From positions 1,632,001 to 1,696,000 of the forward strand of contig OY762964.1 in NCBI GenBank assembly GCA_963667035.1: a stretch of DNA of 64,000 nucleotides. The letters run 5' to 3'. Source of the stretch: Candidatus Cloacimonadales bacterium. GTDB lineage: Bacteria > Cloacimonadota > Cloacimonadia > Cloacimonadales > JAFGVF01. Shown piece by piece: positions 3,418 to 32,454 of this stretch. The translations under genes were made by a program, and so were the position numbers. Each line of letters starts with the position of its first letter. The stretch's first letter is position 1. The notes under the pieces were generated by a model. The model made no database searches. It was given only the letters and a program-made list of their open reading frames with translations, and had not been told where the DNA came from.

Positions 3418-3448
3418 ATAGCTTACGCTATTTATACCTTCTATAAAT
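3418..3448 (+). repeat. Left copy of 31-bp direct repeat flanking the prophage
   Basis: ATAGCTTACGCTATTTATACCTTCTATAAAT, identical to 32424-32454. Confidence 0.95.
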
Positions 3449-3455
3449 AACCGCC

Positions 3456-3672
3456 GACACCCAAAATGGCGAATCTTGACAAGCAAAATGGCGAAAGTTT
3501 GCCTTTGTTTTGTGTAACTCTAAATATTTGTTGATTTAGCCTTTCCTTAGTTGGTCACACTATTTACCTTAGTCTTTCCTTAGTCACTTTCCTTAGTCAC
3601 TTACATTTGCCTTAGTCATTGCCTTTATTGACACCCAAAATGGCGAAAGTTTGCCTTTGTTTTGCCTTAGTC
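3456..3672 (+). repeat. Prophage tail-side end: candidate transposase-binding repeats
   Basis: AAAATGGCGAA at 3463, 3485, 3637; several CCTTAGT copies 3545-3670; 3632-3648 is the exact reverse complement of 32214-32230. Confidence 0.8.
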
Positions 3673-3848
3673 GATAAAGTAATCCCTTGCAAAAAATGTC
3701 ATAAAAAAAAAGCCCTCCTTAAAGAAAAAAGAAGGCTTGTACCATATTATGAAGGCTATTAATCCTTCAGTATACTAATTGAACACAATACAAATTGTGT
3801 CAACTATGCTCTTACCGGCACGTCATACATGTCTTTATTGCATAGAAT

Positions 3849-4751
3849 TTATGTCTGAGAACCTCCGGAAGCAGTAAATGATGCCTTTTTAAATACTACA
3901 GAAAGAATATAGGTTTTACCCACAACCAAACTGTGTAAATCAATAGCATCTAGGTGATAAATAATGCCCCCTACTACTGGATATGACCCCGGTTTCTTTG
4001 AGTAAGTAAAAATAGGATCGAAACTAGTGCCGTTATCAATATCCAAGTTAAGGCAAACACCCCTAGATATATGGGTCAAAGAAGAGTCTAGATCAGGCTC
4101 TAATGCTAAAAGCTCTTCTTCGGTAACTGATTTAGTTGTTCCCGTTGCAGTGAAGTAGTAAGATACTTGATATACCCTAGAGTATTGCGATTGCGAACGC
4201 TCATCTAGATCGTCAATAACTTCGTCCAAAGGTTCACCAGCGTGCGTCAGGTTAGCACTATCCTTTGCATCTGCATTAAGTTTTTCAGGAGCAATCGTGC
4301 CATCAGAAATACTGGCACCGGTTATAGTCTCCTGCATAATATTGCTGTCATTGACAGATTCTTGAGCCAGCTTAGAGTTACTAACTGCATTAGCTCCGAT
4401 TTTCGTACCTATAACAGCTCCATCAATAAGCTGAGTGGAGCCAATAGCACTACCGGCAATCTTGCTCCCTGTAACAGCTTCATCAGCTATTTTATCTCCA
4501 TTTACAGCCCCGTTTTTAATAGCTTCAGCTGTCACTTGACCGACTGTACATCTGAATCCTGAATCATGATAAGATGCATCTCTATTATCCCAAAGTTCAT
4601 AATACCCGTCAGGAACATTATCATTTGAATAGTATCCTGAATTATTCCCATCAAGAAGCTGAATCTCAGTAGCTCCCTGTATCAATTTTACGGTCAAGCC
4701 GGTTACTGCATTACCGGAGCTGTTCTCAAATTTTAAGCCAAATTTTGCCAT
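3849..4751 (-). CDS. Putative tail fibre / receptor-binding protein
   Basis: Last gene of tail operon; central 10-aa repeats (AVxxxKIAxx) seen in phage tail fibres. Confidence 0.6.
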   Translation of the reverse strand: MAKFGLKFENSSGNAVTGLTVKLIQGATEIQLLDGNNSGYYSNDNVPDGYYELWDNRDASYHDSGFRCTVGQVTAEAIKNGAVNGDKIADEAVTGSKIAGSAIGSTQLIDGAVIGTKIGANAVSNSKLAQESVNDSNIMQETITGASISDGTIAPEKLNADAKDSANLTHAGEPLDEVIDDLDERSQSQYSRVYQVSYYFTATGTTKSVTEEELLALEPDLDSSLTHISRGVCLNLDIDNGTSFDPIFTYSKKPGSYPVVGGIIYHLDAIDLHSLVVGKTYILSVVFKKASFTASGGSQT

Positions 4752-4754
4752 TAT

Positions 4755-5195
4755 TTAGACCTCCTGTACATGTTCAGAACTGAAGGAGAAAATACCTTCA
4801 GTCACGTCAATATTGCTTAAAGTTTCGTAGTTCGAAGAGAAAGTAAGCTTCCATGTATCTTCCATAGTTCGCAGTTTATCAGAAGACTTTGGAAGCTTCT
4901 CAATCTCTATAGGATATGTATATTTAACATCCTGCATATAGTACTGCACATATAGATCATCGGCAGTCTTAATAAAGTCAGTTACTTCATGATATAGCGT
5001 AGCATTACCTATCACTGTCAGGTCGATACTATCCTCATAATAAGGATATCTTCTAATTCTGACATAAGGATTAATCTTTGAGCGTTTATCTATCTTATAT
5101 TTAAGTCCGGGAGTGCGTTCTATTATTCCAAACGGAATAATTTTTAGCTGAACCTGTCCGTAAGGAGTTATATTTATCAATGTAATTTCAATCAT
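4755..5195 (-). CDS. Putative tail-tip protein
   Basis: Position in tail operon, overlapping stop/start; no recognised motif. Confidence 0.45.
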   Translation of the reverse strand: MIEITLINITPYGQVQLKIIPFGIIERTPGLKYKIDKRSKINPYVRIRRYPYYEDSIDLTVIGNATLYHEVTDFIKTADDLYVQYYMQDVKYTYPIEIEKLPKSSDKLRTMEDTWKLTFSSNYETLSNIDVTEGIFSFSSEHVQEV

Positions 5196-6559
5196 ACAGC
5201 TGCCTTAATAATGGTCTCTTGAGTTATTGGATTTATAGTTACTTCAAAGATTGTCAGCACGTCCGGAATATAATCGGGAATATGAGCAACCTGACTGATA
5301 TTGATGCTTCTATTAGGTGTCACTGAAGGAAAGATCCAGCCATCGAGTTTTATTCTTACTTCCCACGTATAAATCGTGCTATATGATTCTAAAACATAGT
5401 TTCTTAGAGTTGTTGTATCTCCTCTTAAAACATCCAATACCGATGTATCTATTGCATCAAAATCAGCTCTATAATAGTCAACATCAACAACCAAATCATT
5501 CGGAATCTGAAATACCGGTAAAGGTGTTCTGGTCCCGGCATTCAAATTCCAAGGATACGACTTCTCAACTGTCAAGACAGCTCCATAGCATAACAGAAAT
5601 GCTTTCAGACAATCTTTAACATTAACGAAGTCGTCTTCGCTTTTACCATAATGCATAATATTGAATCTCGGACCTGTATATACAAGCTTATCATCCCCGC
5701 TTGCATCTTCAACAACCATAGTATAATTAGAATGACTAAACTGTTGCGAACCCAAGTTTAGTTCTTCTAACATTGCATATTTACGATTAATTCTATCAGT
5801 TCTAAAAAAAGATTCATTTATCTCTACACGACCTTCCTTGGTTTCTGACGCAGAACTTTCATCTATGAGCTCAAGACAATAGCCATTAAAATATTTGTAT
5901 TGCTGTATTATCTGCGTTATCTGCCATTTGCTGTATCCCAAAACAGTAAATAACAATCGATAGGAAAGAGTAACAACATATAACTCTCTATCAGGACTGT
6001 TAAGTAATATAAATCCGGTATAGTATGTAGTATTAGTCCCTGCGGTATAATTACTGTTGATAGCCTTGACTTCAAGCCTTAAATCTTCATTAACGTAATT
6101 TATATGATCTTCAATATAGCAGTTAAATCCACAGATACTTTCAAATGCATCTTCAGCTACATCAAGCACATTTCCGGATAATGGAGCTACTTCTATATCA
6201 CTTGCTTCAGCTAAAATGCCTAGCTTATCATAAGCTGTAATAGTGATGTTTTCCGTTTTCCCGTCAGGTTTGCATTTCTTCGGATCAATATATCCGATAA
6301 AGAGATTACCTTCTGGAGGATCATCTATTAAATTACGGTCAATATGCAAAAGAAACTGGCTAATTTCGGACATATCTTGAACAATATTGTTCACAACCCA
6401 TTCATCAGTATCAATCGTTAAAACAACCCTCTGTGGCTCGTAGTATTGAGCCTTAGTTCCTTGAAGTTTGGAAGTACCAAAATCAAGATTCATTAGCTTG
6501 CTTCCGGGTAGCATGTATGAATAAGTATTTGTGATAGTGTTAAAGAATCTGATTCTCAT
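5192..6559 (-). CDS. Putative tail hub/baseplate protein
   Basis: Follows tape measure; 'ITITAYDKLGIL' resembles tail hub proteins. Confidence 0.5.
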   Translation of the reverse strand: MRIRFFNTITNTYSYMLPGSKLMNLDFGTSKLQGTKAQYYEPQRVVLTIDTDEWVVNNIVQDMSEISQFLLHIDRNLIDDPPEGNLFIGYIDPKKCKPDGKTENITITAYDKLGILAEASDIEVAPLSGNVLDVAEDAFESICGFNCYIEDHINYVNEDLRLEVKAINSNYTAGTNTTYYTGFILLNSPDRELYVVTLSYRLLFTVLGYSKWQITQIIQQYKYFNGYCLELIDESSASETKEGRVEINESFFRTDRINRKYAMLEELNLGSQQFSHSNYTMVVEDASGDDKLVYTGPRFNIMHYGKSEDDFVNVKDCLKAFLLCYGAVLTVEKSYPWNLNAGTRTPLPVFQIPNDLVVDVDYYRADFDAIDTSVLDVLRGDTTTLRNYVLESYSTIYTWEVRIKLDGWIFPSVTPNRSINISQVAHIPDYIPDVLTIFEVTINPITQETIIKAAV

Positions 6560-8844
6560 CCTAACTTCCTACTTCTAGCTCCCTGTTCACTGGCATAGTG
6601 CACTTTGCTCGGGTCAGCCTCTTCGACAATCTTGTTTGGATCAATATATACTTCAGCACTAAACTGCTTATCATTCATCACCTGTTTCAGTGATCTAATT
6701 TCATTGATTAAATCAGTGTTATCCTGAACTGGATAACTCGCAGTTGTAGAGATTGCTTTCCGGCTTACCGGTGCTCCATAATTCAAGGCATCAAAATAAT
6801 CTTTTCCATATATATCTACAACGCTTTTACGCATGATATATTCTCCACCTTCAGCTTCCAGATTTATTCCACCGGCGGAGTGTGGTGGACCGACTAAATA
6901 GCCACCCATAGCAGCTTTAAACTTTTGCTCAGAGATAGTAGCAATCTCAGCAACACCGATTGCAGACTGTATTGCCGCCATACCAATAGATATAGGTGGA
7001 GGATATGCAGCAATAGCCTTAGTCACACCTTCTGCCGTGTTCATCGTAGCATTAGCATATGCAAGAGCTTTGCCAATATTGAACATAGTTTTTGACTGTT
7101 CTTGGTAAGCACTCATCAACCTACTTCCGGCATTCAAAATAGCTTTAGACCCAGACAAATATAACTTCTTCCTATCAGCATTAACTTGCTTCTGTTTGGT
7201 AGCAATCTCATCTTCCAATGCAAGCCTTCTGTCTGTACTCATTATCTCCTGAGCAAGAACTTCATTTAGATAACTGATATAGGCTTCCTTCTTCTTGAAT
7301 TGACTCATAGCTGAGTTATTGTAATCTTCTTCATAAAGCCTATTAAACTCATCACGCCACTCTTGCCGAACGCTTTTACCCCAGGACATATTTGCTACCT
7401 TCATATCACTCAATGCAAGAGCATATTCTTTGGACTGGTCTCCATAGGTTTGTTTTACGAATCTCAAGTACTCAAACTGTGCTTGCTTGAGTTCTTCAGC
7501 AGTTGCAAGCCCTACATCTTTCTGAGTTCTCAAAAGCTCAAGTTTCTCAATATATCGCTGCTTCTCAGTCTCTATTTCTTCATTCTTAAGCTTCTCTTTC
7601 TCAGCTTGTGCTGCTTCTTCTCTTTCTATCTCCTCTTTAGCATACTCCTTATCAATTGCTGCAGATAATTCCTTCTCAAGTTCAGTCAAAGCAACATCAG
7701 CTTCAATCTTAGCCTGCTTAAGCTGTTGCCTTTTCGCATTCTCAGCCTGTTCCACAGATAAGTTTTGCTGTTTTGTTGCTTTGAGTTTATTAAGTACCTC
7801 AATCTCTTTTTCAAGTGCTTCTCTTCGTAGAGCATTATCATTAACAATGGCAACCGCTGCATCATTGGAGATGGACATGTCCGCCATAGTAGCTCTGCTT
7901 TTTTCCTGAAGTTTATCAACATTTCTCTGAGTAACTGCTATCTGTTGTTCAATGGAATCAATGCTTGAAGAGCCCCATAATTCAGAAATTGCAAATGCAT
8001 CTTTCATGTAAACATTGCTCTCTTGAGACCAATCATGAATCATGCTAAACATCTGAGTCATCTTTGGAACTATGTTGTTAAGAATAGGCACAAAACTTTC
8101 ACCCAGAATCTCTACAAGGTCACTCCAGTTGCTTGATAACATCTTAACAGGGTCAGCCATTGCTTCAGCCGCACCCTGAGTCTGACCTTCAAGTGCAGCA
8201 AGAATCATTCTTTGGGCATCTGCCTTCTTGTTAGCTTCCACTAAAGACTTAATCATCTCCTTCTCGGTTTCAGTGAAAGTAACACCAACTCGTGCCAGTG
8301 CTGACACACCCTTAACCGGGTCTTCTAATGCTTTACCAAGTTGTATTGTGGAGGACTTAAGATCTTGCCCGAATTGAGCAGATAAATCCATTGCGGCTTT
8401 TGTAGCTCTATCGAATACATCCGGGAGATTAATACTTTTAAAAGTCAGGAAATTACTGATCACTTCATTACTAATTACTTCATCGCCCAATCCGGTTGTT
8501 GCTTGAATTCTTGCAGCGAGACTTTTAAAGTCTTCAGACACAAGACCCAATTGGTTACCGGTAGCTTTTAAGGTGTTTTGCAGTTTCCTGTCAGCTTCCT
8601 CCTGTGCTCTATATGATTGATAAACAGTGCTAACAACACGGTTAACAGCCATATATGCCATTCTTACACCTTGAGCAGCAACTGTAAGGTCTCGGAGCCT
8701 TGCAACTGCGTCTTTTCCATCAACTTTTACCTTGGTGGGAGTACCGGCATCTTTCTTCAGCTTCTTAAGATCGTCGGCAACATTCTGAAGAGTAACCTCT
8801 GCCTTCTTCCCATCAATAATCAGTTCGAGTTTATACTTTTCCAT
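6556..8844 (-). CDS. Tail tape measure protein
   Basis: Ala/Lys/Glu-rich coiled coil; QLGKALEDPVKGVSALARVGVTFT and GPPHSAGGINLEAEGGEYIM motifs typical of TMPs. Confidence 0.92.
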   Translation of the reverse strand: MEKYKLELIIDGKKAEVTLQNVADDLKKLKKDAGTPTKVKVDGKDAVARLRDLTVAAQGVRMAYMAVNRVVSTVYQSYRAQEEADRKLQNTLKATGNQLGLVSEDFKSLAARIQATTGLGDEVISNEVISNFLTFKSINLPDVFDRATKAAMDLSAQFGQDLKSSTIQLGKALEDPVKGVSALARVGVTFTETEKEMIKSLVEANKKADAQRMILAALEGQTQGAAEAMADPVKMLSSNWSDLVEILGESFVPILNNIVPKMTQMFSMIHDWSQESNVYMKDAFAISELWGSSSIDSIEQQIAVTQRNVDKLQEKSRATMADMSISNDAAVAIVNDNALRREALEKEIEVLNKLKATKQQNLSVEQAENAKRQQLKQAKIEADVALTELEKELSAAIDKEYAKEEIEREEAAQAEKEKLKNEEIETEKQRYIEKLELLRTQKDVGLATAEELKQAQFEYLRFVKQTYGDQSKEYALALSDMKVANMSWGKSVRQEWRDEFNRLYEEDYNNSAMSQFKKKEAYISYLNEVLAQEIMSTDRRLALEDEIATKQKQVNADRKKLYLSGSKAILNAGSRLMSAYQEQSKTMFNIGKALAYANATMNTAEGVTKAIAAYPPPISIGMAAIQSAIGVAEIATISEQKFKAAMGGYLVGPPHSAGGINLEAEGGEYIMRKSVVDIYGKDYFDALNYGAPVSRKAISTTASYPVQDNTDLINEIRSLKQVMNDKQFSAEVYIDPNKIVEEADPSKVHYASEQGARSRKLG

Positions 8845-8983
8845 AACTACTCCGCAATACTCGCTTGCTGTCTCACTTTATGAATAACCATTAAACGGTC
8901 GAAAGCCTCAAAGAGGCTTAAACGATCCAGATCTGTATAGCTGTAACCTAAACTCACAAGCATAATCTCAACTTCAACCCAGC

Positions 8984-9271
8984 TTAATCCTTTTCCTTCG
9001 GTATCGGTTCCGGCTTCGGAATATTTTCGCTTGATTCGTCCGGTCTCGATGTTAAGTAGGTAAAAAAATCATTAATGAGTTCTACCCCCCTCATCCCGTC
9101 AATTCTCTCAGCTTCAGGTTCATCATCATCCTTCAAAGCATTAACTAGGTCACGACCTGCGAGGCTGTTATATAGATCCCATTTGCTTTTTGCCTCGGTT
9201 TGATCATATCCATTTTCTTCAAGCACTGCTAGTGCCTTAACAAATTTAGGGAACGGTATTGTCTTTTTCAT
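8984..9271 (-). CDS. Tail assembly chaperone (gpG-like); -1 frameshift form extends to 8847
   Basis: Immediately upstream of TMP; T TTT TTT slippery site at 9062-9068; -1 frame open to TAG at 8847-8849. Confidence 0.8.
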   Translation of the reverse strand: MKKTIPFPKFVKALAVLEENGYDQTEAKSKWDLYNSLAGRDLVNALKDDDEPEAERIDGMRGVELINDFFTYLTSRPDESSENIPKPEPIPKEKD

Positions 9272-9280
9272 TGCATAACC

Positions 9281-9466
9281 TCATAAAAAGTATAGTAGTT
9301 TTATTAGTCCGGCAATCAAGGCTCCGGCAATTATACCAGTTAGCCATGTATTGAATTTTAAAGTTGTTTTGATTTTAACCATTTCGTATTTTAGCCCTGG
9401 CTTTCCATTACCGTAAACCGTGTGTCTAAGTTCTTTAACATCCCTTTCAAGCGATTCTTTGTCCAT
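9281..9466 (-). CDS. Small membrane protein, holin/XhlA-like
   Basis: Coiled coil, GNGKPGL, single C-terminal TM; ATG at 9466 has AGGAGG RBS. Confidence 0.55.
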   Translation of the reverse strand: MDKESLERDVKELRHTVYGNGKPGLKYEMVKIKTTLKFNTWLTGIIAGALIAGLIKLLYFL

Positions 9467-9732
9467 TAATCCTCCTGTGATTCTTCCCACTTAGAATTAC
9501 CAACTACATCATCTATTCTTATTTGTGGATATTCATCTAATAATGTTGGACATCCTGATTCTTCATGATATGAAATTATTGCTTGATTAGATCCATCAAT
9601 ACTAACCCTAACTGAAGATAAAGAATACCTAGCACCAATATCTGGACATTCTCTAATAAGATCTTCCCAAATATGGCATAAAAAATCATAAGGAACCTCT
9701 TTATACAGCCTTCTCAATTGTTGCTCCTCCAT
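9466..9732 (-). CDS. Small phage protein
   Basis: Open frame between neighbours; 'VRVSIDG' resembles small proteins following LamG-type phage genes; start uncertain. Confidence 0.5.
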   Translation of the reverse strand: MEEQQLRRLYKEVPYDFLCHIWEDLIRECPDIGARYSLSSVRVSIDGSNQAIISYHEESGCPTLLDEYPQIRIDDVVGNSKWEESQED

Positions 9733-10429
9733 GTAATATAATTCTTTTATTTTTATAACCTAAGTTCGGGGTTAAAACCTGACCTGATTCGGTAAAACTC
9801 TTTTCAAATGGGAAATAATAGGCTAATTTAGACTTGTCCAAATATGTTCTTGGATCTAATTTATCTTCATTGTAAGCTGATCTTTGATTGGGGGTTATAT
9901 TGCCAAAATAGATAATTAAGCTTGAAAAGTCTGCCTCAACAAATCTATATGTTGAATAAAGGCTATCACCAATACTGAAATAAGATAAGCCGTTATATGT
10001 TGATTCACCTTCGCTGAGCTGGTTTACACCATTTAGCAATAAAGATAAGTCTCCGGAACTAACAACTGGATATACACTGTTAATTTCTAGAGTATAAAAT
10101 TGATTTAGGTCTATATCTTCAGTAGTTCTTGATATTAAGTTACTTTGAGAATCAAGCCAACGACTATCTCCAACCATTAAATTGTTATACCGTTTTAAAA
10201 CATAATCAAATGGTGTAGAATCTGGAAGCAATCCCGTGAATATCTGTTTGTGCGTACTTGAGCGTATTTTCACTTTTGTCATTATAGTCACATGGCTTAC
10301 ACCACTAAAATCAAGATTTTCTCCTTCCATAGTAGCATAACCGTCAATACCACCCAATCGTAGTACATGCTTATTCACATACCTTTTAGCTTTATTCTTC
10401 CAAACATTTAAACCTAATACCAAGCTCAT
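9701..10429 (-). CDS. Phage structural protein with LamG/concanavalin-like fold
   Basis: 'LRLGGIDGYA', 'LLLNGVNQ', 'FSIGDS', 'LAYYFPF' pattern. Confidence 0.55.
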   Translation of the reverse strand: MSLVLGLNVWKNKAKRYVNKHVLRLGGIDGYATMEGENLDFSGVSHVTIMTKVKIRSSTHKQIFTGLLPDSTPFDYVLKRYNNLMVGDSRWLDSQSNLISRTTEDIDLNQFYTLEINSVYPVVSSGDLSLLLNGVNQLSEGESTYNGLSYFSIGDSLYSTYRFVEADFSSLIIYFGNITPNQRSAYNEDKLDPRTYLDKSKLAYYFPFEKSFTESGQVLTPNLGYKNKRIILHGGATIEKAV

Positions 10430-10436
10430 ATAACAC

Positions 10437-11177
10437 CTACACTATATCAAACTCAAACTCAACGGTCTGAGCTTCAGCTCCGGAGTTTTTAAGCTTAAAT
10501 GAAGCTATTCCACCACATCCTTTTATAAGACCATCAGGAAGACTGGCAGGAATTAAATCAGCATCAAGAAGTTTAATATCTGCTCCCGAATTCGAAAAAC
10601 AAATCTGTGCAGCTCTTACGGGTACGGCTATCTCCAAAACCTCACCTGCAGGGATTGATACCGGGCTGAAACAAATAGCTTCAAGTTGAATATTACTGAT
10701 AGTGATAATCCCCTGTGTTGATGTGGTTTGTGAAGCAACCAACTTGAAGTCATTCTCCACATTATCAACATAAAAAAATACTCCATGATTACCTTCAGTA
10801 AACGGAAGGTTTACATCTGCAGACGCAATACCTCCACCGGCTTCATCATCATCAACCAAGGTAAGTGCAAAGTCACCATCAGGTATAGCTTCTATAGCTA
10901 CAGTATACTTCAGAATACATCTGGTTCTTGTAACATCGGTCAAACTCTTCTGAAGACCACGGATATAGTTCTCAACTGATTGAACAATGCTACCGGTAAG
11001 ACCATTAGCAAATGTCAACTGGAATCCGGTACTCTCGGAAGTAAAACCTGTAAGAGTAAAATCTCCGGGAGTGTTTGATAAAAATGTATGAGTGCCACCA
11101 TCATGGTGCTGCCAACCATTAGCTACTGGAAGGATACCGTGATTCAGATCTCTTGGCATTAAATTGTATTTCTTCAT
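10437..11177 (-). CDS. Phage structural protein, beta-rich
   Basis: Start moved to ATG 11177 (AGGAG RBS); the ORF-track extension runs through repeat hairpins. Confidence 0.6.
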   Translation of the reverse strand: MKKYNLMPRDLNHGILPVANGWQHHDGGTHTFLSNTPGDFTLTGFTSESTGFQLTFANGLTGSIVQSVENYIRGLQKSLTDVTRTRCILKYTVAIEAIPDGDFALTLVDDDEAGGGIASADVNLPFTEGNHGVFFYVDNVENDFKLVASQTTSTQGIITISNIQLEAICFSPVSIPAGEVLEIAVPVRAAQICFSNSGADIKLLDADLIPASLPDGLIKGCGGIASFKLKNSGAEAQTVEFEFDIV

Positions 11178-11193
11178 ATCAGCTCCTATAAAA

Positions 11194-11220
11194 ACTGGGA
11201 ACGCAGGCTTCTTGCTTGCA
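11194..11220 (+). repeat. REP-like hairpin repeat (ACTGGG family), intergenic
   Basis: ACTGGGAAC-GCAGGC-TTCTT-GCTTGC-A. Confidence 0.8.
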
Positions 11221-11269
11221 TCTTTTAGAAAGGGCGTCAAGAAGACGCCCTACAGTAGAGTGTTTCAGG

Positions 11270-11428
11270 TTAAGCAAATGCATCTTCAACGATTGATTCC
11301 AATATTTCAACCGCTTCATCGTCAATTGTGTTGTCAGTTCTCTTTGCAAGCTCTTTGAGAAGAGTTATAGCGAAAGATGCTAATTTCTCAGCTGGTAGTT
11401 TCATAAGATACTTAAGTATCCATTTCAT
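11270..11428 (-). CDS. Small phage protein, 52 aa, not on ORF track
   Basis: GGAGG RBS; MKWILKYLMKLPAEKLASFAITLLKELAKRTDNTIDDEAVEILESIVEDAFA. Confidence 0.75.
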   Translation of the reverse strand: MKWILKYLMKLPAEKLASFAITLLKELAKRTDNTIDDEAVEILESIVEDAFA

Positions 11429-11442
11429 AATAACCTCCGTGG

Positions 11443-12129
11443 TTATGATTCAGTAATTGAGATGTCTTTGATTAATTCAAGGGCATCAACATCAAGTGTT
11501 ACTATTTCTATTTCGAAGCCGACAGATTCTGCAGTTAGCATTACCTGACTTGCTTCAGTGATAAAATTGATTGAATAAGAACCCATTATATCAGTCTCAT
11601 CATTAACTTTTACTTCATTGAATTGAGTTAATGTAACTTTCACACCATTCTCAGGCTCTGAAGTACTAGCATTAGTAACAACTCCGGAAACTACAGCTTC
11701 CGAAAGAACTAGGACTTTTGAGTCTACTGTCTTTTCAGCATTGAAAGTAATAAGAGATAAGTCTCCTGATTGGGTGATTGTTTTAGTACTGGCTCTACCA
11801 TCATAAATCCAGAATAAAGTATCTTTTTCGTTTGGATCCAGAAGGATGATATCAATCTGTCCACCGGTCAAGTCTCTCAATACATTAAGCTGTAATGAGT
11901 TTAGCCAGATTCGGTCAATACTTGCAGCTACTTTTTCGCTGACCAAGTAATCTGTTCCATCTGCAAGACGTGCATTCTCGGGGCTTATCTTAAGCTTATT
12001 GCTCTTCACAACATCAACATAAGTAAAACCAAGTACTTCAAGTCCCGCTTGATTTATGTTATCAGGCACAATTTCACTTATATCAATGCTTCCGGCTCTT
12101 TGTCTGATGTAGATATCAAAGTACTTCAT
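11443..12129 (-). CDS. Tail-tube paralogue with C-terminal Ig/carboxypeptidase-regulatory-like domain
   Basis: N-terminal half aligns by eye with 12138-12572; C-terminal VSGVVTN...GVKVTL...TDIMGSYSI...VGF. Confidence 0.6.
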   Translation of the reverse strand: MKYFDIYIRQRAGSIDISEIVPDNINQAGLEVLGFTYVDVVKSNKLKISPENARLADGTDYLVSEKVAASIDRIWLNSLQLNVLRDLTGGQIDIILLDPNEKDTLFWIYDGRASTKTITQSGDLSLITFNAEKTVDSKVLVLSEAVVSGVVTNASTSEPENGVKVTLTQFNEVKVNDETDIMGSYSINFITEASQVMLTAESVGFEIEIVTLDVDALELIKDISITES

Positions 12130-12137
12130 ACATCCTC

Positions 12138-12572
12138 CTAACTAAGCGAAACAAAGCTCTGTGCAGGAGCATTAACTGAAGCTTCTTTAGCACCGGAAAC
12201 TGCTACTTTAAGTGTAGCACCTGACTCAGCAGTAATCTTAGGATAAAGTCTCACATTCTCAAGGTAAGGACAAAGGGTTAGCTGATCGGGATCCACAAAA
12301 AGCACATCGACTTTCTGATTAATCATCAAGCTTCTCATATTATTGTAATCAACTCCACTCACCTTGTCAGCAGTAAAGTCTGTTACAGTCTCCTCGCTAT
12401 CAGTGCTGGAAGTACCATCAGCTAAAGCGTTCTGTGCTTTTGGCGACAGTTCCATTTTGTTCTTCTCAAGAAGATTGTCATACTTAGTCCAACCGGACGC
12501 TAAACCTGCATAAGTTGATGGAGGAGTTGCATCGTGGGCTCTAACATATACTTCTTTATAAAATCTTGCCAT
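12138..12572 (-). CDS. Putative major tail tube protein
   Basis: Size 144 aa, position after capsid, beta-rich Ser/Thr/Ala composition. Confidence 0.55.
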   Translation of the reverse strand: MARFYKEVYVRAHDATPPSTYAGLASGWTKYDNLLEKNKMELSPKAQNALADGTSSTDSEETVTDFTADKVSGVDYNNMRSLMINQKVDVLFVDPDQLTLCPYLENVRLYPKITAESGATLKVAVSGAKEASVNAPAQSFVSLS

Positions 12573-12589
12573 TTTACACCTCTAATAGG

Positions 12590-12613
12590 TGGGGTATGCA
12601 TATGCATACCCCA
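12590..12613. repeat. 24-bp perfect palindrome between capsid and tail tube genes
   Basis: TGGGGTATGCATATGCATACCCCA. Confidence 0.85.
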
Positions 12614-12619
12614 ATATGT

Positions 12620-13522
12620 TTATGCATCATTATCAGTTGAATCGTACTTAACGTAGATGTACTTGTCTGCGAGCTTTAACTCACCCCAAGCACTCCAGAC
12701 ATTGATGATATCATTGACTTTAGTAGCACTTGGTTGAGTCTTTTGACTGAACTTCTTCTGGAAAGCAGCACAAGCAGCTAACTTTTGATAGAAAATAGCA
12801 CACTTGTTAGTGTTGTTTTCTGCTGTCTCGCTGATAGTACCGTCGTCATCAACCAGAGGGCAATCAGCTTGCATTATAAAGTCAAAGCCATGAGCATGAC
12901 CAACGTAACCGTCATAGATTACACCCTTAGCGTTTGGATTTTTGCTAACATCTGAGAAATTGGAAATGCTAGTTAAATCATTAGCATACTCCGGACTTAC
13001 GATGCAGAATCTATCCTTTTGGGGTGCTTTTTGTTTATCAAGTGCAACCTTAGCTGCTTGAATATCTTCTTCAGTTAATTTTTTGTTAGTTGTATCTGCT
13101 ATAGGCACTAAATGCACAGGTGCTGAGACAGGAACACTATTAACTAAGAGATTCATAATACGTAGATTACTTTCGTCTCTAATAGCATCTTTGGCGTTTA
13201 AGCCCTGCTCATTGGTCTCGGCAATATCAGACTGAGCCTTATCAATGTCATAAACATTGAAAAGATAACCTATCTGAAGATTCAGATTAAGAGTAGATAC
13301 TGATTTACCGGAATCATCTGGTATATCGAACTCTGCCTTCAAAGCTTTCGTTTGAGCCGAATTAGGTATCAGCTGAGGAATGTTGATAGATTCTACTTTA
13401 TTCCCCTGAGCTCTTTTGGTTAAGTCAACAATAGTGTCAATGAGCCACTTCTGGTTTCCAAGACGCTCTCGAATCATTTGCTGGAGTGTTTTATTGCTCC
13501 AAATCTGAGGATTATATCCCAT
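12620..13522 (-). CDS. Major capsid protein
   Basis: Follows protease; PQIWS N-terminus, LDKQKAPQKDRFCIVSP, GYVGHAHGF motifs of HK97-fold coat proteins. Confidence 0.85.
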   Translation of the reverse strand: MGYNPQIWSNKTLQQMIRERLGNQKWLIDTIVDLTKRAQGNKVESINIPQLIPNSAQTKALKAEFDIPDDSGKSVSTLNLNLQIGYLFNVYDIDKAQSDIAETNEQGLNAKDAIRDESNLRIMNLLVNSVPVSAPVHLVPIADTTNKKLTEEDIQAAKVALDKQKAPQKDRFCIVSPEYANDLTSISNFSDVSKNPNAKGVIYDGYVGHAHGFDFIMQADCPLVDDDGTISETAENNTNKCAIFYQKLAACAAFQKKFSQKTQPSATKVNDIINVWSAWGELKLADKYIYVKYDSTDNDA

Positions 13523-14674: not shown

Positions 14675-14699
14675 GACTTCAGAACATGAAGGAGGTCTT

Positions 14700-15089: not shown

Positions 15090-15091
15090 CT

Positions 15092-17876: not shown

Positions 17877-17888
17877 AGGACACAAGAT

Positions 17889-22905: not shown

Positions 22906-23520
22906 CTAACTCAACTTAGTTTGATATTTCGACAATTGCAACCCAAGGTCATCCCATGCAAAACTAGGGAAATCAGGCTTATATCCATTTACGTCTCTGT
23001 GAGATAGTATCGTTAACGGTTTGCCAAAGATTGTGTTATATTCAACCATCAACTCATGAAGTGACCTGATTTGCTCAGGAGTTGGGTGCTGATAAAAAAC
23101 ACCTTTCAACTTTTCCCAATGAGTACCTGTTTTAATCTCAGGTTGCACACCCCAGGATACCAAGGCAATTCCAATAGATTGTGAATCCATTGTGTTGCCT
23201 TTTCCGGTATGATTGGCATATCTAATTGTAGGATCAACACATCTATAAATTGTGCCATCTCGGTCAATAATGTCATTGTATACAACTGATCCATCACCCA
23301 CTCCATCACCATCAATATCGTGACGATTATTGAGCCAGTTAATAGCCGATTCAGCACTACCGGAAGCCGTCCAGTGAATCACAATTCGCTTTGGTTTGCT
23401 ATTGTTCCCTTTTGCAAATGAATTATCTAAGAACATTAATCGCTTATCTACAGTCTTCAGAGCCCAATCAAACACAGGGCTGTATTTAAACTCTGTCATT
23501 TTTCTCTTTGCATTTTGCAT
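22906..23520 (-). CDS. N-acetylmuramoyl-L-alanine amidase (Amidase_2), probable endolysin
   Basis: IVIHWTA, IIDRDGTI, ANHTG, SIGIAL, ILSHRD. Confidence 0.85.
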   Translation of the reverse strand: MQNAKRKMTEFKYSPVFDWALKTVDKRLMFLDNSFAKGNNSKPKRIVIHWTASGSAESAINWLNNRHDIDGDGVGDGSVVYNDIIDRDGTIYRCVDPTIRYANHTGKGNTMDSQSIGIALVSWGVQPEIKTGTHWEKLKGVFYQHPTPEQIRSLHELMVEYNTIFGKPLTILSHRDVNGYKPDFPSFAWDDLGLQLSKYQTKLS

Positions 23521-25342: not shown

Positions 25343-25895
25343 GCTTCCCCAATCTTCTTCTAATTTCAGCTATTTCAGCCTTAACTTTTGCCCTTCTTGC
25401 AAGATATTCAGGATCTTTATATGCACTTGGTTTTCTTAATTTTGCTGCTTGTTTTCTATATGTTCGGTAAGTTAGTAAATTATCTGGGACATCATCTTTT
25501 ATCTTAATGATCATGCCGTTGTAATGTTCTATACACCCAATGACTTCTAGACAAAGGCAGTAGCGATAGATTGTTTCTACACTTCTGCTACAAGCTTCTG
25601 CAACTGTTTCAATATATTGCTTCTCAGATGAAGTAACTCTGAGAATTTGATTGATGATAGCAATCTTAGGAACCCAATCCCATCCCTGACTCGGTAGCTC
25701 CAATGGAGCCAATTTATAAATCGTGCGACCGTTAACAACTCCAGCCTTAACAATAATCCCTCTCTTCAAGAAATCGCTGAAATAGCTTCGTACATTCTCA
25801 ACCTTTACTCCGGTAATGCTGCTAGCCTTGTTTGCTGTAAAAGCTCCGGAAGAGTTAATACAGAACTTGCGAACCATCTCCTTATAATTCACCAT
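25332..25895 (-). CDS. Hypothetical winged-HTH-like protein
   Basis: Follows ATPase; two HTH-like segments. Confidence 0.5.
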   Translation of the reverse strand: MVNYKEMVRKFCINSSGAFTANKASSITGVKVENVRSYFSDFLKRGIIVKAGVVNGRTIYKLAPLELPSQGWDWVPKIAIINQILRVTSSEKQYIETVAEACSRSVETIYRYCLCLEVIGCIEHYNGMIIKIKDDVPDNLLTYRTYRKQAAKLRKPSAYKDPEYLARRAKVKAEIAEIRRRLGKLDV

Positions 25896-26604
25896 TAGCT
25901 ACCTTCCTATCTAATATTTCTAATACTTTTTCTGCTTGTCTAAGATCATAATGCCCTGTTGAGTTCCCTGCATCTTCACCTAATTTTGAAAGAACCCACT
26001 TGATCACACTATCATCAATTTTAAATGAACGCCTTTGATTTCTTAAGAACTCAACAAACTCGGTTTTTGTAAGTCTTTTGAATTCAGTGACCCTAAGCAC
26101 ACGGTTGAAATAATGAGTATTGAATCTGAGGATCTTTCGATCGAGGTTCTCTTCTCCAACGAATACTACTACGCAATAAGTTGTATCAAGTAAGTCTCTG
26201 ATACCCTCAAAGATATCCCTATTCTTTCTGTCCATTCTCACTATGTGGTCTACTTCATCAATATAGATGACTGTATTGGGGTGATTCTCTAAGATCTCAC
26301 GAATCCCTGCTTTCATCATCGAGGCACGGCGTCCAACATGTGGGTATTCATTATGTAGCTTTGAAAGCTGGTGAAACATCCGTTCAAAAAAGCTCAGTGG
26401 TGTGTCTTGGCAGTCTGTGCGTACTAAAACAGACGATTCTTGTATTAGTGACATTTGTGTAGCCCATCTGCTTTTACCTGTAGAGGTGATTCCTTGGACT
26501 ACCATAGCTCCTACAAGCTCATCAACATCTCGTGCAAGTACTTCATTTAAACATCTCTCTGCTTCTTTTGTGTACTTGGTATCAACATAATGCAGATTCT
26601 TCAT
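25882..26604 (-). CDS. MuB/TniB-like AAA+ transposition ATPase
   Basis: GITSTGKS Walker A, IYIDEVD Walker B, IRDLLD..VVFVGE; overlaps transposase stop. Confidence 0.88.
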   Translation of the reverse strand: MKNLHYVDTKYTKEAERCLNEVLARDVDELVGAMVVQGITSTGKSRWATQMSLIQESSVLVRTDCQDTPLSFFERMFHQLSKLHNEYPHVGRRASMMKAGIREILENHPNTVIYIDEVDHIVRMDRKNRDIFEGIRDLLDTTYCVVVFVGEENLDRKILRFNTHYFNRVLRVTEFKRLTKTEFVEFLRNQRRSFKIDDSVIKWVLSKLGEDAGNSTGHYDLRQAEKVLEILDRKVANGEL

Positions 26605-28703
26605 AGTTTGACTCCTATTCCATTTAAGTCTATCTTCTTCAGTTGTTCTTCAGTTAAAATCGAACCTGCTGACTCAGGGGTTAGTTTTGGAGGGGGAACA
26701 TCAGCAGGTTCGAGCGTGAGGGTATTGACCTTGTTTTCTTTCTCAGGAATATGTTCAGGAGAAGGAATTGGTATTTGTTTTGGTTTAGCTTTCTCTTCGA
26801 TGTAATTCTGATCTGTAATCAAGTGTATATCTTCAGGAGTAGTAATCTCTAAAGGATTGCGTTTTACATATAAATCAGTTGCTTCAGACAGCTTTTGAGC
26901 AGCTTTCTTAGCTTCTTTCTCAAGCTTTCGGTGTAGTTTCAAGGTGTCAGCAAGTTGCCTTCTATCAAGTTCTGCAGTATCAGATAGCTTGTAGTGTGGA
27001 TGGTGCAATTTCTTAGCTTCAGCTTGGCAAACAAACTGATCATCTACATAAACAAGCACTGACTTAATTGACCAAGTGTCATATCTTACCAAGGCACGCT
27101 TTCCTACATGATCAACTAATACAGGAGACCAGTAATCTACTTTCTGAACCCTTACACCTTCATTGCTAATTTTAACACTCGCTTTTTCAAGCATAAGGTG
27201 GTTGAGCTGCTTAGAGGAGATTAACCTGGATACTGGAGCTTTAAAAGCTTCAAGTACTTCTAAAGGTTTGCGTCCATCAAGCCCTTTATGAGGTGTCATT
27301 CCGTAAATATTGATCATCCACGCATTAAGACACATCTTAAACTCTTCTATAGGAATCGGAGATCTATCATTCAGGCTTGCTGTGAACTTCTCATTACGTT
27401 TCATAGAAGCTGGTTTTGCCTGATTATTTTCTCCTCTCCAACTCTTATGGAAACGTTCAAAACCGTTCTGCATAGTAAGCCAGAAGCGTTCTATCACTTT
27501 TGACTTGGCGTTATATGGTTGAGAGAAACTGACAACTATTCCAAGTGCATGATAGATACCTTCAAGTTGTTCTTCAGGTAGCTTAGGTGCTTCAAGTCCT
27601 TTTCTGGTTGAGCCTATGAATATCTTGCTTCTATAAGCCTTACCATTGTCTATTTGCACAAGCTTTGGAATGTAACCAGTAAACAAGCAGCTATTTCTAA
27701 AGCTCAGTTTGATTACATCTGCATTCTCTGTACGATTTATACTTAAACCCACACACATCCTACTACCTGCATCAAACCACCCAATAAGTGTTGGACGGAA
27801 TACATTCCCGTTCTCATCCATCACATCAAGGTTCATCTCTTTGCCGTCAGAGACCCACATGTCACCCGGTTGTATCAAGCTCCAGTCTCTTTGAACCGTA
27901 GGAAGAACTTTCTCACGAAAATGCTTTGTACCTTTTCGAAGCAGATTCCATAAGGGACGATTTTTATCCTGCCAATCCTTAACAAAACGATAAAGAGTGT
28001 AACTGGTGACTGGTATCATCTTTCCTGCTAATCGATATTCATGCTCAACTTGAGAGATTGCAGACATGATAGGAATCTCACTATCTCTTTTCAGGTAAGC
28101 CAATAACCTAATCTGCACATCTGGGGGGACATTATGACCGTGAGACCGCTCATAGTTAGGCATCAAAGCCCTGTAATCACCGTTGGCATCATTTAAATCG
28201 TGTTCCCAACGCTCCAATGACCTAGGTGAGATCTTTTTCAATCTTGGTTCTGCCCAACTGTATAGTCCGGCTTTGTAATTCAGCACAAAGTCCTTTCTCT
28301 GTTTGGTTATGCTTCCGGGTGTAATCCCGGCAAGAAAGCGTCGAACAATCTCAGCCTTTACAATAGCCTCACGTTCATGCTTCAGGGTAATCTTGCTCTT
28401 TTTCTCCGGGAAAACAGACAACTCGTTAAGAATTGAATCATCTATACTACTGGGTACGTGAGCTTCAAGCTCACTGGGTCCGCAGGCATCCTTGCCTGCA
28501 TCATTTTGCATTTTGCATTCATCATTTAGCATTTCGACCGGGACGGTCGGTGCTTCAACCCAATACAAGAAAACCTGTCCACCCTTACCACGTCCGGGAA
28601 CAGACTTACTTTCAAGCTTGCCGTTACTACCCCAGTTACGGATAGTCCGAGGGCTTACTCCAAGAGCCTCTGCTGCTTCGTTACAAGTTAACCATTTCTT
28701 CAT
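26601..28703 (-). CDS. Mu-like DDE transposase
   Basis: N-terminal HTH; WVSDG, IDNGKAY, AKSKVIERF triad; PHKGLDGRKP; VRYDTWSI C-terminal domain. Start set at ATG 28703 (GGAG RBS). Confidence 0.95.
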   Translation of the reverse strand: MKKWLTCNEAAEALGVSPRTIRNWGSNGKLESKSVPGRGKGGQVFLYWVEAPTVPVEMLNDECKMQNDAGKDACGPSELEAHVPSSIDDSILNELSVFPEKKSKITLKHEREAIVKAEIVRRFLAGITPGSITKQRKDFVLNYKAGLYSWAEPRLKKISPRSLERWEHDLNDANGDYRALMPNYERSHGHNVPPDVQIRLLAYLKRDSEIPIMSAISQVEHEYRLAGKMIPVTSYTLYRFVKDWQDKNRPLWNLLRKGTKHFREKVLPTVQRDWSLIQPGDMWVSDGKEMNLDVMDENGNVFRPTLIGWFDAGSRMCVGLSINRTENADVIKLSFRNSCLFTGYIPKLVQIDNGKAYRSKIFIGSTRKGLEAPKLPEEQLEGIYHALGIVVSFSQPYNAKSKVIERFWLTMQNGFERFHKSWRGENNQAKPASMKRNEKFTASLNDRSPIPIEEFKMCLNAWMINIYGMTPHKGLDGRKPLEVLEAFKAPVSRLISSKQLNHLMLEKASVKISNEGVRVQKVDYWSPVLVDHVGKRALVRYDTWSIKSVLVYVDDQFVCQAEAKKLHHPHYKLSDTAELDRRQLADTLKLHRKLEKEAKKAAQKLSEATDLYVKRNPLEITTPEDIHLITDQNYIEEKAKPKQIPIPSPEHIPEKENKVNTLTLEPADVPPPKLTPESAGSILTEEQLKKIDLNGIGVKL
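28449..28500 (+). repeat. Two overlapping REP-like units inside transposase linker
   Basis: ACTGGGTACGTGAGCTTCAAGCTCAC / ACTGGGTCCGCAGGCATCCTTGCCTGCA; read as AGKDACGPSELEAHVPS on -. Confidence 0.88.
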
Positions 28704-28734
28704 AACTTCTCCAATATAGTGTGTAATAGCCCTC

Positions 28735-28788
28735 ACTGGGTACGCTGGCATCCTGCCGGCACATAACCACCCGGTGAGGGTTGGTTAC
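28735..28788 (+). repeat. REP-like unit plus adjacent hairpin upstream of transposase
   Basis: ACTGGGTACGCTGGCATCCTGCCGGCA then TAACCA-CCC...GGG-TTGGTTA. Confidence 0.75.
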
Positions 28789-28791: not shown

Positions 28792-29742
28792 CTATCGTTG
28801 GGACGATATTTCTTTATTTGGTTGCTTCTTGGTCGCTTCACCGGGAAGGAGTCCCAGCTCATTCCAACCCTCGCAGGTAGATACTGCATCACCATCCTCT
28901 AAAACAATACCTATTACCATATTCAATAAGTTTAAAGCTGCACCGCGTGCCGTAAGTGTGAGCCTATAAATGTCTACCTCGCTAGGTTCTGGGACGAATA
29001 TACCCCTGTTTTGAATTAGGTCCCTTGTGAGCTTTAAATTACCCAAGTCTGATTCTGCTCTCAACAAGGATATACGCTGATAGAACATATCTGAGACATC
29101 TTCACCATCAATGGTAAATATTGGGTTGCGGATAATAGAACTGGAACCGCAGGCATCCTGCCTGCACTCTTTCCCCTTCTCCACCGCCCTAATAACATAA
29201 AGCTCTCCTTCCTCACTAAGCTTCAGACCATGAGCCTCTAATGCATCATCAAGCTCACTCCAACACTCCATCGGGAGCAGGGATATAGCTTTCGAAAGAC
29301 CTGTTTCCGGAGGAATTGATATTGAATTAAAGATCGGAAGTGCTCTAAACCTATCAAGTACCTGCCGAACTATCTCATTAATACGTTTAGTGACTGAGTT
29401 ATCAGCTCCAAAATCTCCCGTGTAAGGACGCTTAGGTGCGTCAGATGGTGATAGGTCTGCTATTACTGCCTGTCCCTGAATGTCCCTGCCTGTCCCTTCA
29501 GGCTCCGGTATCTCGTAAGGATGCTGTCGAAGCAGCCCAATTATAGGTTCCACGCACCAATAATAGTAAGTTCTGATGCCGCCGTAATCGCAGATTACAG
29601 CTAAAAAACTCACATCGGTTATTTTAAACTCTACCTTACCAAGGTACCAAACTTGACCCTCTTCTAGCTCCACTCCGTGGAGATATACCTTCCCTTCAAT
29701 AATCTCCACTCCATTATCAATTATGCATTTGTCATTCTTCAT
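28792..29742 (-). CDS. Hypothetical early protein containing a REP-like unit at 29140-29166
   Basis: 316-aa ORF with GGAGG RBS in early operon. Confidence 0.6.
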   Translation of the reverse strand: MKNDKCIIDNGVEIIEGKVYLHGVELEEGQVWYLGKVEFKITDVSFLAVICDYGGIRTYYYWCVEPIIGLLRQHPYEIPEPEGTGRDIQGQAVIADLSPSDAPKRPYTGDFGADNSVTKRINEIVRQVLDRFRALPIFNSISIPPETGLSKAISLLPMECWSELDDALEAHGLKLSEEGELYVIRAVEKGKECRQDACGSSSIIRNPIFTIDGEDVSDMFYQRISLLRAESDLGNLKLTRDLIQNRGIFVPEPSEVDIYRLTLTARGAALNLLNMVIGIVLEDGDAVSTCEGWNELGLLPGEATKKQPNKEISSQR

Positions 29743-30546: not shown

Positions 30547-30555
30547 AGCTAATTC

Positions 30556-30864: not shown

Positions 30865-30874
30865 AGGTGTTTTA

Positions 30875-31516
30875 ATGATTGGCAAAAGATTGAAGGAAAT
30901 TAGGATATCTCAAGGACTTACGCAAATGCAAATTTCTTCAGTATTGGAGATAAATCAGGGCAATTATAGTAGGTTAGAGAAGAATAACATAGAACCGAAT
31001 ATGCCATTATTACATAAAATCAGTAAACTATATAGTGTTAATCTGCATTGGCTCCTAACCGGAGAAGGTAATATGCTTCTTGATTCTCCTGATTTACCTA
31101 AAGTCTCATTCCCAGTAACTCACGAGATGAAAGAAATCCCTATATCTGCTGAAATCTCAGCCGGGGAACCAATCGAAGCAATCGACCACGAGCTTGGTGT
31201 TGTCCAGGTCTCCAGTGCATTACCTGTAGAGAGCCTTGTAGCATTCCGGGTAAATGGTGCAAGTATGAAGCCTGTAGTGCAGCATAATGATATTGTGATT
31301 ATCAACCGGGACTGTCTTGAAGATTGTTATGATAACCGGATAGTAGCTGTAAGAATAGATGATGGTATCACCCTAAAGAAGTTTGTCCTGGATCATGAAA
31401 GTAAAAATGCCTGGTTATTCCCTTTCAATCTTCAGTACAAACCAATAAAACTCAATGACAACATGGATATCAGAATCATAGGAGTATTGGACTATCTAAT
31501 AAGATCTTTTAAGTAG
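30875..31516 (+). CDS. CI-like repressor, XRE HTH + S24 peptidase
   Basis: RLKEIR..GLTQ HTH, VNLHWLLTGEG, SAG cleavage site, VNGASM and TLKK catalytic residues. Confidence 0.95.
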   Translation: MIGKRLKEIRISQGLTQMQISSVLEINQGNYSRLEKNNIEPNMPLLHKISKLYSVNLHWLLTGEGNMLLDSPDLPKVSFPVTHEMKEIPISAEISAGEPIEAIDHELGVVQVSSALPVESLVAFRVNGASMKPVVQHNDIVIINRDCLEDCYDNRIVAVRIDDGITLKKFVLDHESKNAWLFPFNLQYKPIKLNDNMDIRIIGVLDYLIRSFK

Positions 31517-31525
31517 GAGGAATTT

Positions 31526-32194
31526 ATGTGGTTTGTTTTATTGCTAATAATCGCTATTGTTGTTTATGCAATCTATAAGAAGTATTTCACGAAAGTTATC
31601 ATTAATGGTCAAACTAAAATTGTTCCATTGAGTAGCCTCAAATCGGATTATATCTCCACCCGTTATCCTAAAGGTATTGAGTTCGAAATGACAGGAAATC
31701 GCTTAAGAATCGTTTATGAATCTGCTAAGATAATTTCTGAAACTAAGAATATGGGTACTCTTATCAGTAGATTACATGTTCTCTTAGATAATTTAAGCAA
31801 GCTAGAAGAGTTGTCCATCGATGAGATATACAGTAACTACGAAAGTTTACTGCTTGAGTTTGTGACAAAAGGTAAATTAATAGATTCAAAGATAGCTAAT
31901 TTTAAGAGTTTTAGAGATAATATAACATGCCCTTATTGCAGTCATTTGTTCGATAAACCCGTAAGTCGAATGAGAAACTGTCCTCAGTGCAAAAATAAAA
32001 TTATCAGAATAAAAGATAATGATACTGCATTCTTAGTTACAGAAGCTGAAGCAACTGAAATATCGAATGTGTTAAGCAGACATTCATATCAATGGGAGTC
32101 TGACTTCATCTCTGATTTCCCTGAAAGATTTAAAGAGTATGAAGAGCTATTTTTACCTGAACTTTTGTATGGTGAAAAGAAAGAGGAAAGTTAG
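31526..32194 (+). CDS. Membrane-anchored zinc-ribbon protein co-transcribed with repressor
   Basis: N-terminal TM; CPYC-x11-CPQC. Confidence 0.7.
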   Translation: MWFVLLLIIAIVVYAIYKKYFTKVIINGQTKIVPLSSLKSDYISTRYPKGIEFEMTGNRLRIVYESAKIISETKNMGTLISRLHVLLDNLSKLEELSIDEIYSNYESLLLEFVTKGKLIDSKIANFKSFRDNITCPYCSHLFDKPVSRMRNCPQCKNKIIRIKDNDTAFLVTEAEATEISNVLSRHSYQWESDFISDFPERFKEYEELFLPELLYGEKKEES

Positions 32195-32205
32195 CAGGTA
32201 CTAAT

Positions 32206-32411
32206 TAAGGCAATTTCGCCATTTTGGGTGCTAACATTTTCGCCAAACTGCCTGCTAACATTTTCGCCAAACTGCCTGCTAACATTTTCGCCATTTTCCT
32301 GCCATAATTTTCCATTATTTTACATTTTCGCCATTTTGCGATTTCGCAATTATTCGCTATAAACCATTATCGCTAAATGTATTTACACGACTAAGGCAAT
32401 TTCGCCATTTT
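32206..32411 (-). repeat. Prophage repressor-side end: candidate transposase-binding repeats
   Basis: TTTCGCCA at 32214, 32238, 32262, 32286, 32326, 32400; 24-bp tandem TGCTAACATTTTCGCCAAACTGCC x2 plus partial (32229-32293). Confidence 0.85.
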
Positions 32412-32423
32412 CCCTGCCCCCCT

Positions 32424-32454
32424 ATAGCTTACGCTATTTATACCTTCTATAAAT
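32424..32454 (+). repeat. Right copy of 31-bp direct repeat
   Basis: Identical to 3418-3448. Confidence 0.95.

Follow-up and report, generated by a model that had tools for sequence, protein, structure and literature searches.

An exact 27-bp direct repeat flush with the predicted tips of a Mu-like prophage in a Candidatus Cloacimonadales genome: a probable long target-site duplication

How does a phage that carries the transposition genes of a Mu relative come to lie between two copies of a long, exact direct repeat? The question is raised by a prophage of Candidatus Cloacimonadales bacterium (assembly GCA_963667035.1, contig OY762964.1), contained in a stretch of 64,000 nucleotides (forward-strand positions 1,632,001 to 1,696,000) that we refer to as the window and in whose coordinates all positions below are given. 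Phage Mu duplicates 5 bp of its target and ends in TG...CA, as an earlier note on this DNA stated and as PMC8705779 describes; the same source gives 6 bp for B3, and in the literature the duplication of Mu and its relatives is a fixed 5–6 bp that serves as a criterion for finding such prophages, a range well short of the 27 bp duplicated here. We consider it probable (at about 0.72) that the repeat is a target-site duplication left by a single DDE transposition event, in which the two strand transfers would have been 27 bp apart.

The repeat itself is not in doubt as a feature of the assembled sequence. The 31-mer ATAGCTTACGCTATTTATACCTTCTATAAAT stands at 3418–3448 and again at 32424–32454 with 100% identity, as first reported, and these are the only two copies in the closed, one-contig host genome of 3,102,113 bp even when up to three mismatches are allowed; arithmetic puts the chance expectation of an exact 31-mer repeat within 64 kb at the order of 1e-10. 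At both ends it adjoins inverted arrays of the motif AAATGGCGAA, which is found in three exact copies on the plus strand at 3464–3647 and in four on the minus strand at 32215–32410, and with no more than one mismatch gives 11 matches in the window against 4.5 +/- 2.1 in shuffled sequences, none of the 100 shuffles reaching 11. Repeat finding and motif counts place three putative transposase-site repeats GACAnnCAAAATGGCGAA in the left-end array (3456–3647, plus strand; repeats at 3456–3473, 3478–3495 and 3630–3647), and four putative transposase sites that match AAATGGCGAA exactly in the right-end array (32211–32411, minus strand; sites at 32215–32224, 32287–32296, 32327–32336 and 32401–32410), which also includes 24-nucleotide (nt) tandem units at 32211–32293. 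Such inverted arrays of apparent transposase-type repeats at both ends are those of a Mu-like element. The genome has one copy of the transposase gene and no other copy, or solo copy, of either phage end.

Where exactly the prophage begins and ends can be judged from its relatives. We collected 20 prophage regions related to it, drawn from 12 genomes of its order, mapping their ends by copy-to-copy comparison and a motif-guided search; end finding by inverted-repeat score alone was swamped by noise, and motif-guided and manual comparison was used in its place. Ten of the regions could be resolved, their tips being fixed by their own 5-bp duplications. All ten elements start with 5′-TA, and they end either in ...TA-3′ (eight) or in ...CA-3′ (two). 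A box at positions 9–14 from the tip reads GACACC exactly in 13 of 20 end sequences, the rest having near variants such as TCTCAC and AGTCAC. In the window T3448 is followed by GACACC at 3456–3461, likewise positions 9–14, and the minus strand read from 32426 gives TATAGGGGGGCAGGGAAAATGGC, which aligns with the near ends of the G031 prophages, TATAAAGTCTCACCCCCCATGGC, with ATGGC at positions 19–23 in both. On the left the outermost AAAATGGCGAA begins 15 nt from 3448, and on the right the distance to 32426 is the same, a spacing that the earlier note had seen and that we recovered. From this alignment the tips are best placed at 3448 and 32426, both reading 5′-TA, which predicts a prophage of 28,979 bp (3448–32426) flanked without a gap by 27 bp of duplicated host target, GCTTACGCTATTTATACCTTCTATAAA, at 3421–3447 on the left and 32427–32453 on the right; the same tips and the same flush duplication had been proposed before, and we reached them independently. 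Alternative symmetric tips at 3449 and 32425 may be considered, and would give a 29-bp duplication. With the tips at 3448 and 32426, the ATA at 3418–3420 consists of host bases that coincide with the right tip of the phage, and the T at 32454 is a host base coinciding with the left tip base; four such extra matches (3 + 1) have a chance of about 1% under the local base composition, by arithmetic. The content of guanine plus cytosine (GC) is 0.38–0.45 in the prophage and 0.34–0.37 in the flanks.

The TA tips are not the special trait that the lack of TG...CA ends had been taken for, since eight of the ten relatives are TA...TA elements and TA-TA prophages have been published for Leptospira (as described in PMC8705779). 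TG...CA tips no longer define the family of Mu-like transposable phages.

The genes of the element agree with its ends. A Pfam scan of 46 open reading frames (ORFs) covering 233–36350, that is the prophage and its host flanks, bears out the description of an element with a DDE transposase and an ATPase and with neither a tyrosine nor a serine recombinase. The transposase (26601–28751, minus strand) is of the MuA type, with Mu-transpos_C (E 7e-13), DDE_2 (E 9e-8), an rve match below the cut-off and an N-terminal MerR-like helix-turn-helix (HTH) domain; it matches the transposase family phrog_310 with an E of 2e-88, and its D, D and E residues align with those of the relatives. The ORF encodes 716 amino acids from the ATG at 28751, and the database copy begins at 28703 (700 amino acids). 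Next to it lies a MuB-like AAA+ transposition ATPase (25882–26604, minus strand; AAA_22, TniB and the DNA transposition protein family phrog_296). Head genes of the Mu type are present as well (Portal_Mu with an E of 6e-50, Phage_Mu_F, Mu gp36 and a Mu-like_Pro/ClpP protease), and the identification of a Mu-like transposable prophage that lacks an integrase thus stands.

Long exact repeats at the borders of a prophage are the usual mark of attachment (att) cores, and one could on that ground read the 27–31-mer as a core common to phage and host at which site-specific integration occurred. We regard this as highly improbable, since the 46 ORFs scanned include neither a tyrosine nor a serine recombinase, the repeat directly adjoins tips of the Mu type whose distances from the transposase sites are conserved, and the segment belongs to a family of host repeats among whose members it varies.

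That host family is what reveals the probable origin of the segment. The insertion splits a copy of a dispersed host repeat, of which the left part is the box CAGTGCAGTTTGCAATA (3396–3420, plus strand), recognised by alignment with paralogues, and the right part (32454–32590, plus strand) is a variable spacer followed by a long hairpin with arms at 32485–32513 and 32540–32568, recognised by inverted-repeat finding and alignment. The hairpin repeat (ACTGTTTTTGCACTGTG ... CACAGTGCAAAAACAGTGG, 32470–32590) has 32 further loci in the genome. A script-built model of the site with one copy of the segment, aligned to paralogous host repeats, gave single collinear matches across the junction with five paralogues of the same genome (171–188 nt, 69–78% identity); in a sixth, p534, the blast match starts just past the 27-mer, and this copy joins the others in a multiple alignment in which none of the six needs an extra 27 nt. 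The first half of the 27-mer (GCTTACGC...) is conserved among the paralogues, and the segment varies among them. Because the paralogues carry the segment once, the duplication arose with the insertion: the segment appears from these alignments to be host DNA that is normally single copy, the second copy having come with the phage. At least six copies of the host repeat have a CAGTGCnnTTTGCAAT box upstream, 47–69 nt away, and an Rfam search with the repeat returned no family, only sub-threshold matches to microRNA-like hairpins.

A repeat of this kind might also be a product of assembly, one of its copies being absent from the cells. The genome apparently comes from a mixed sample; four sequencing runs are listed, three of them from the probable source sample, with 0.6–1.8 million assembled contigs per run. 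Logan contigs of two source-sample runs extend from the phage end into the repeat (32264–32453) and from the repeat into the right flank (32425–32518), and they break or branch at the repeat, as a graph built at a k-mer length (k) of 31 must when a 31-mer has two contexts. This check covers the right junction only, and these runs, coming from the sample from which the genome was probably assembled, are not independent of it. By reasoning, contigs at k = 31 can neither phase a 31-bp repeat nor show an empty site, which would give no unique 31-mer. A further run (X3), in which the host flank has a depth of 2 and the phage part no coverage, carries no weight, and another (X4) gave no contig matching the locus. 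With the prophage lying mid-way along a single 3.1-Mb contig, and with contigs that reach into the right-hand copy from either side, we find an artefact of this sort very unlikely.

We favor a target-site duplication by DDE transposition because the repeat is flush with intact Mu-type tips, no integrase is encoded and the duplicated segment is of host origin. In this explanation a Mu-type phage would have inserted into the spacer of the dispersed host hairpin repeat, its two 3′-OH ends attacking the target strands 27 bp apart with a 5′ stagger, and repair of the two single-stranded gaps would have placed a copy of these 27 bp on each side of the phage; the 3 + 1 further identities, which stretch the repeat to 31 bp, would be phage tip bases that match the host by chance. 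The chemistry assumed here is taken from what is known of Mu. We note that 27 equals 5 + 22, the difference being about two helical turns, and the attacked phosphates might thus be exposed on about the same side of the DNA as they are when the stagger is 5 bp. There is a precedent in the IS1202 group, whose TnsB-like transposases make duplications of 16–28 bp according to PMC10132070; the earlier statement that IS1202 duplicates 27 bp is sound in substance, the source giving that range for the group.

Other routes to a repeat of this form were considered and rejected. A short duplication with one end subsequently overwritten by host DNA is ruled out, as both ends are intact to the tip. A 5-bp duplication within a pre-existing tandem repeat is ruled out by the bases at the junctions, where the left flank closes with ATAAA and the right flank opens with GCTTA. 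A target cruciform (ATTTATA-CCTTC-TATAAAT) can be dismissed by reasoning, its position not being such as to bring the cuts 5 bp apart.

Several observations nevertheless weigh against a transposition with a 27-bp stagger. The first is the behavior of the relatives: the 5-bp duplications of the ten resolved prophages are exact in every case (10/10, from the 20 regions), and this clade of Mu-like prophages normally combines TA tips with a duplication of 5 bp. The other ten regions are nested, tandem or truncated (G031B, G106, G083, G013, G005B, G036A–D and G050), and a long flush repeat of host sequence alone is found in none of them. Outside the clade, Mu (PMC8705779) and the Faecalibacterium phage Mushu (PMC5883640) are likewise described as duplicating 5 bp. 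The catalytic core of the window transposase has no large insertion or deletion relative to the 5-bp enzymes. There is one insertion only, from whose single scar the stagger has to be deduced, and the four extra matching bases could hint at an event dependent on microhomology. Finally, an empty site of the same locus, expected to carry one 27-mer between CAGTGCAGTTTGCAATA and TCCCCTTGCTGTG, was sought as the earlier note had advised and found neither in other genomes nor in read sets. Of 60 relatives, only the three genomes belonging to the same genus have matches to the flanks, at 68–74% identity, and in one of these (G001) the two flanks are about 250 kb apart on opposite strands; no orthologous empty site is readable because the species-level relatives are too diverged and rearranged at the locus. 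Exact searches with the 31-mer gave no match in the metagenome contigs of the Joint Genome Institute (JGI) and none in IMG/VR, and the 18-nt end site gave 25 metagenome matches and one viral match, all attributable to chance, with no shared phage DNA beyond about 25 nt and no phage protein.

These observations bear differently on two questions, namely whether a 27-bp stagger occurred and whether it is what this enzyme usually does. The earlier note had proposed a class of transposable phage with a long stagger, and had itself named duplications of 5–6 bp in homologous prophages as evidence to the contrary; such duplications are what the relatives have, with the qualification that their transposases are only 33–39% identical to that of the window. 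The claim of a new class, resting on one scar and without backing from the relatives, is not supported. A narrower proposal, contained within the explanation by transposition, is that a 27-bp stagger is the normal habit of this one transposase, which would make the prophage the first transposable phage of the long-duplication type; it may be extended to a parallel with the IS1202 group that would have arisen independently inside the MuA/TnsB superfamily, perhaps with the aid of an orphan 316-amino-acid protein encoded beside the transposase gene.

The isolation of the transposase speaks for this proposal. Among 1.84 billion representative proteins no homologue exceeds 44% identity, the best full-length matches having 38–40%; a word-indexed search of 5.8 billion clusters returned the window transposase itself and matches of at most 31% identity; and a search for related loci returned none with the transposase protein and, with the alignment A1, only matches from Ignavibacteria at 25–29%. 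The transposase thus appears, from these comparisons, to be a singleton on a long branch, and the prophage to belong to a new, isolated lineage; the 5-bp relatives do not exclude a changed habit in such an enzyme. A quick tree places it with P0019 and P0030, two proteins lacking genomic context (Shimodaira–Hasegawa-like approximate likelihood ratio test, SH-aLRT, 96), and away from the resolved 5-bp clade. P0019 is encoded on 13 JGI contigs, the longest of 499 kb; neither protein gave anything in viral contigs, and among the 232 genomes of the class P0019 finds at best 40% identity. We also note that duplication length tracks transposase phylogeny in the IS1202 family, as described in PMC10132070, and that an enzyme with this habit would always leave a flush 27-bp duplication, an outcome that should be rare for a 5-bp enzyme. 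Against a habit stand the uniform 5-bp duplications of the resolved relatives and of Mushu, the placing of 5-bp phages on both sides of the window branch in the same tree, and a catalytic core with no distinctive architecture; our searches of open-access text turned up no transposable phage for which a long duplication is described, and PMC5977238 has none of the duplication terms sought. As the transposase is a singleton, and as the genome offers neither a further copy nor a solo end, there is no second insertion to compare. We therefore hold the habit to be possible and rather doubtful, and if transposition did produce the repeat we lean somewhat toward the 27 bp being an exception by the enzyme and not its rule.

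It is also conceivable that the enzyme kept to 5 bp throughout and that the repeat is of secondary origin. Two 5-bp insertions of the phage, lying in the same direction on sister chromosomes and separated by 22 bp, could have recombined within the phage, and the recombinant would pair the left junction from one of them with the right junction from its partner, giving a flush 27-bp duplication; some other rearrangement after insertion might have a similar outcome. Such an origin would keep the transposase at the norm of its clade, and non-canonical junctions do occur among the relatives. In G031B (G031:C1, loci L074–L076) a 57-bp direct repeat comprises the last 49 nt of the element's own far end and 8 nt of flank, repeated just before the near end, so that an 8-bp flush repeat follows a far-end copy; the transposase is identical to that of the neighbour G031A, which has a clean 5-bp duplication. 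In G036C (G036:C2, loci L158–L160), a TG...CA-ended element, the far-end unit AGTGGAAAATGAAGGTGTCACTTTACA is present three times in tandem, and upstream of the near end is a 137-bp stretch that copies subterminal far-end sequence with 90% identity. The repeat in the window differs from both in containing no phage sequence, and the recombination would need two independent hits in the same orientation within 22 bp of each other at a site that nothing marks as a hot spot. We judge a secondary origin to be unlikely. A further oddity in the clade is G050A, with far-end-like sites just outside its near end.

A comparison with known systems shows how little else about the prophage is out of the ordinary. 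It shares a MuA-like transposase, a MuB-like ATPase, an S24 repressor and Mu-type head genes with Mushu and with the TA-ended Mu-like prophages of the order (G004, G005, G006, G014, G031, G079 and G141, the nearest relative being G106), and it has the same end anatomy, with 5′-TA tips, a GACACC-like box at positions 9–14 and repeated transposase sites. It differs from the prophages of the order in its length (29.0 kb, against 30.5–36.8 kb) and in its 27-bp duplication, against their 5 bp. Mushu departs from it in the same respect, its duplication being 5 bp in the account of PMC5883640, and the two transposases are about 25% identical. The domains DDE_2, Mu-transpos_C, Portal_Mu, Mu_F and gp36 and the arrays of transposase sites at both ends are as in Escherichia phage Mu, and Pfam files the window transposase with the Mu transposases; Mu differs in its TG...CA tips and 5-bp duplication (PMC8705779), and the identity of its transposase to that of the window is about 23.5% across 56% of the query. 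By description, the TA-TA transposable prophages of Leptospira (WETA1 type; PMC8705779) are alike in having TA at both tips and unlike in their 6-bp duplication, B3/Tn552-family transposase and spirochaete host. The IS1202 group, as portrayed in PMC10132070, offers the likeness of a long duplication, the 27 bp falling inside its range, and of a TnsB-like RNase H fold and beta barrel within the broad superfamily of MuA; its members are insertion sequences of about 1.5 kb with 5′-TGT...ACA-3′ ends and one transposase of about 450 amino acids, lacking an ATPase and phage genes, in contrast to the 29 kb and the TA tips of the present phage. In its genes, its ends and its lack of TG...CA tips the prophage is typical of its clade, from which it departs in the length of the duplication.

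The remaining genes complete the picture of a transposable phage. Directly upstream of the transposase gene, between it and small early genes, is the orphan 316-amino-acid ORF (28792–29742, minus strand), for which Pfam and PHROG gave no match and neither the related prophages nor a large protein search a homologue, and which sits in the most GC-rich part of the phage (0.447). A repressor with HTH and Peptidase_S24 domains (30875–31516, plus strand; Pfam) is divergent from the early operon, and an Amidase_2 endolysin (22906–23520, minus strand; Pfam) represents lysis. The capsid and tail region (3849–14574, minus strand; Pfam and PHROG) encodes a ClpP/Mu-I-type protease-scaffold, capsid and tail proteins, the tape measure (6556–8844) and the tail fibre (3849–4751). 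The head and packaging module (14634–20618, plus strand; Pfam) includes Mu gp36-like, virion morphogenesis, and small and large terminase genes and a 909-amino-acid fusion; it lies on the strand opposite to the early, lysis, capsid and tail modules, and this inverted layout is also that of G106. The fusion ORF (17889–20618, plus strand) joins Portal_Mu and Mu_F domains to a C-terminal PBECR2 nuclease domain (Barnase/EndoU/colicin-like). Portal and F are separate genes in Mu.

A GC-rich hairpin repeat of 27–28 nt (ACTGGGnACGC, then a 6-nt stem, loop, stem and A) is found 12 times in the 29-kb prophage, at 11194, 19145, 19364–19473 (four in tandem), 21545, 21571, 28449, 28473, 28735 and 29140, always on the plus strand irrespective of the orientation of the genes. 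The four tandem copies fall inside the 909-amino-acid ORF, in the linker between the Portal_Mu and Mu_F domains. Elsewhere in the 3.1-Mb genome the pattern has 29 matches, about 25 of them with the hairpin and several clustered near 2.95 Mb.

The geometry with which a transpososome sits on its target can be read from the length of the duplication. If a 27-bp stagger was indeed made by a Mu-type enzyme, members of the family can differ in that geometry by whole helical turns, a possibility to which the IS1202 group points, and long-stagger geometry could be studied here in a phage, whose life cycle is selectable. Even as a one-off it has a practical bearing, in that software for finding prophage boundaries would misfile insertions of this kind if it looks for 5-bp scars or takes long repeats for att sites.

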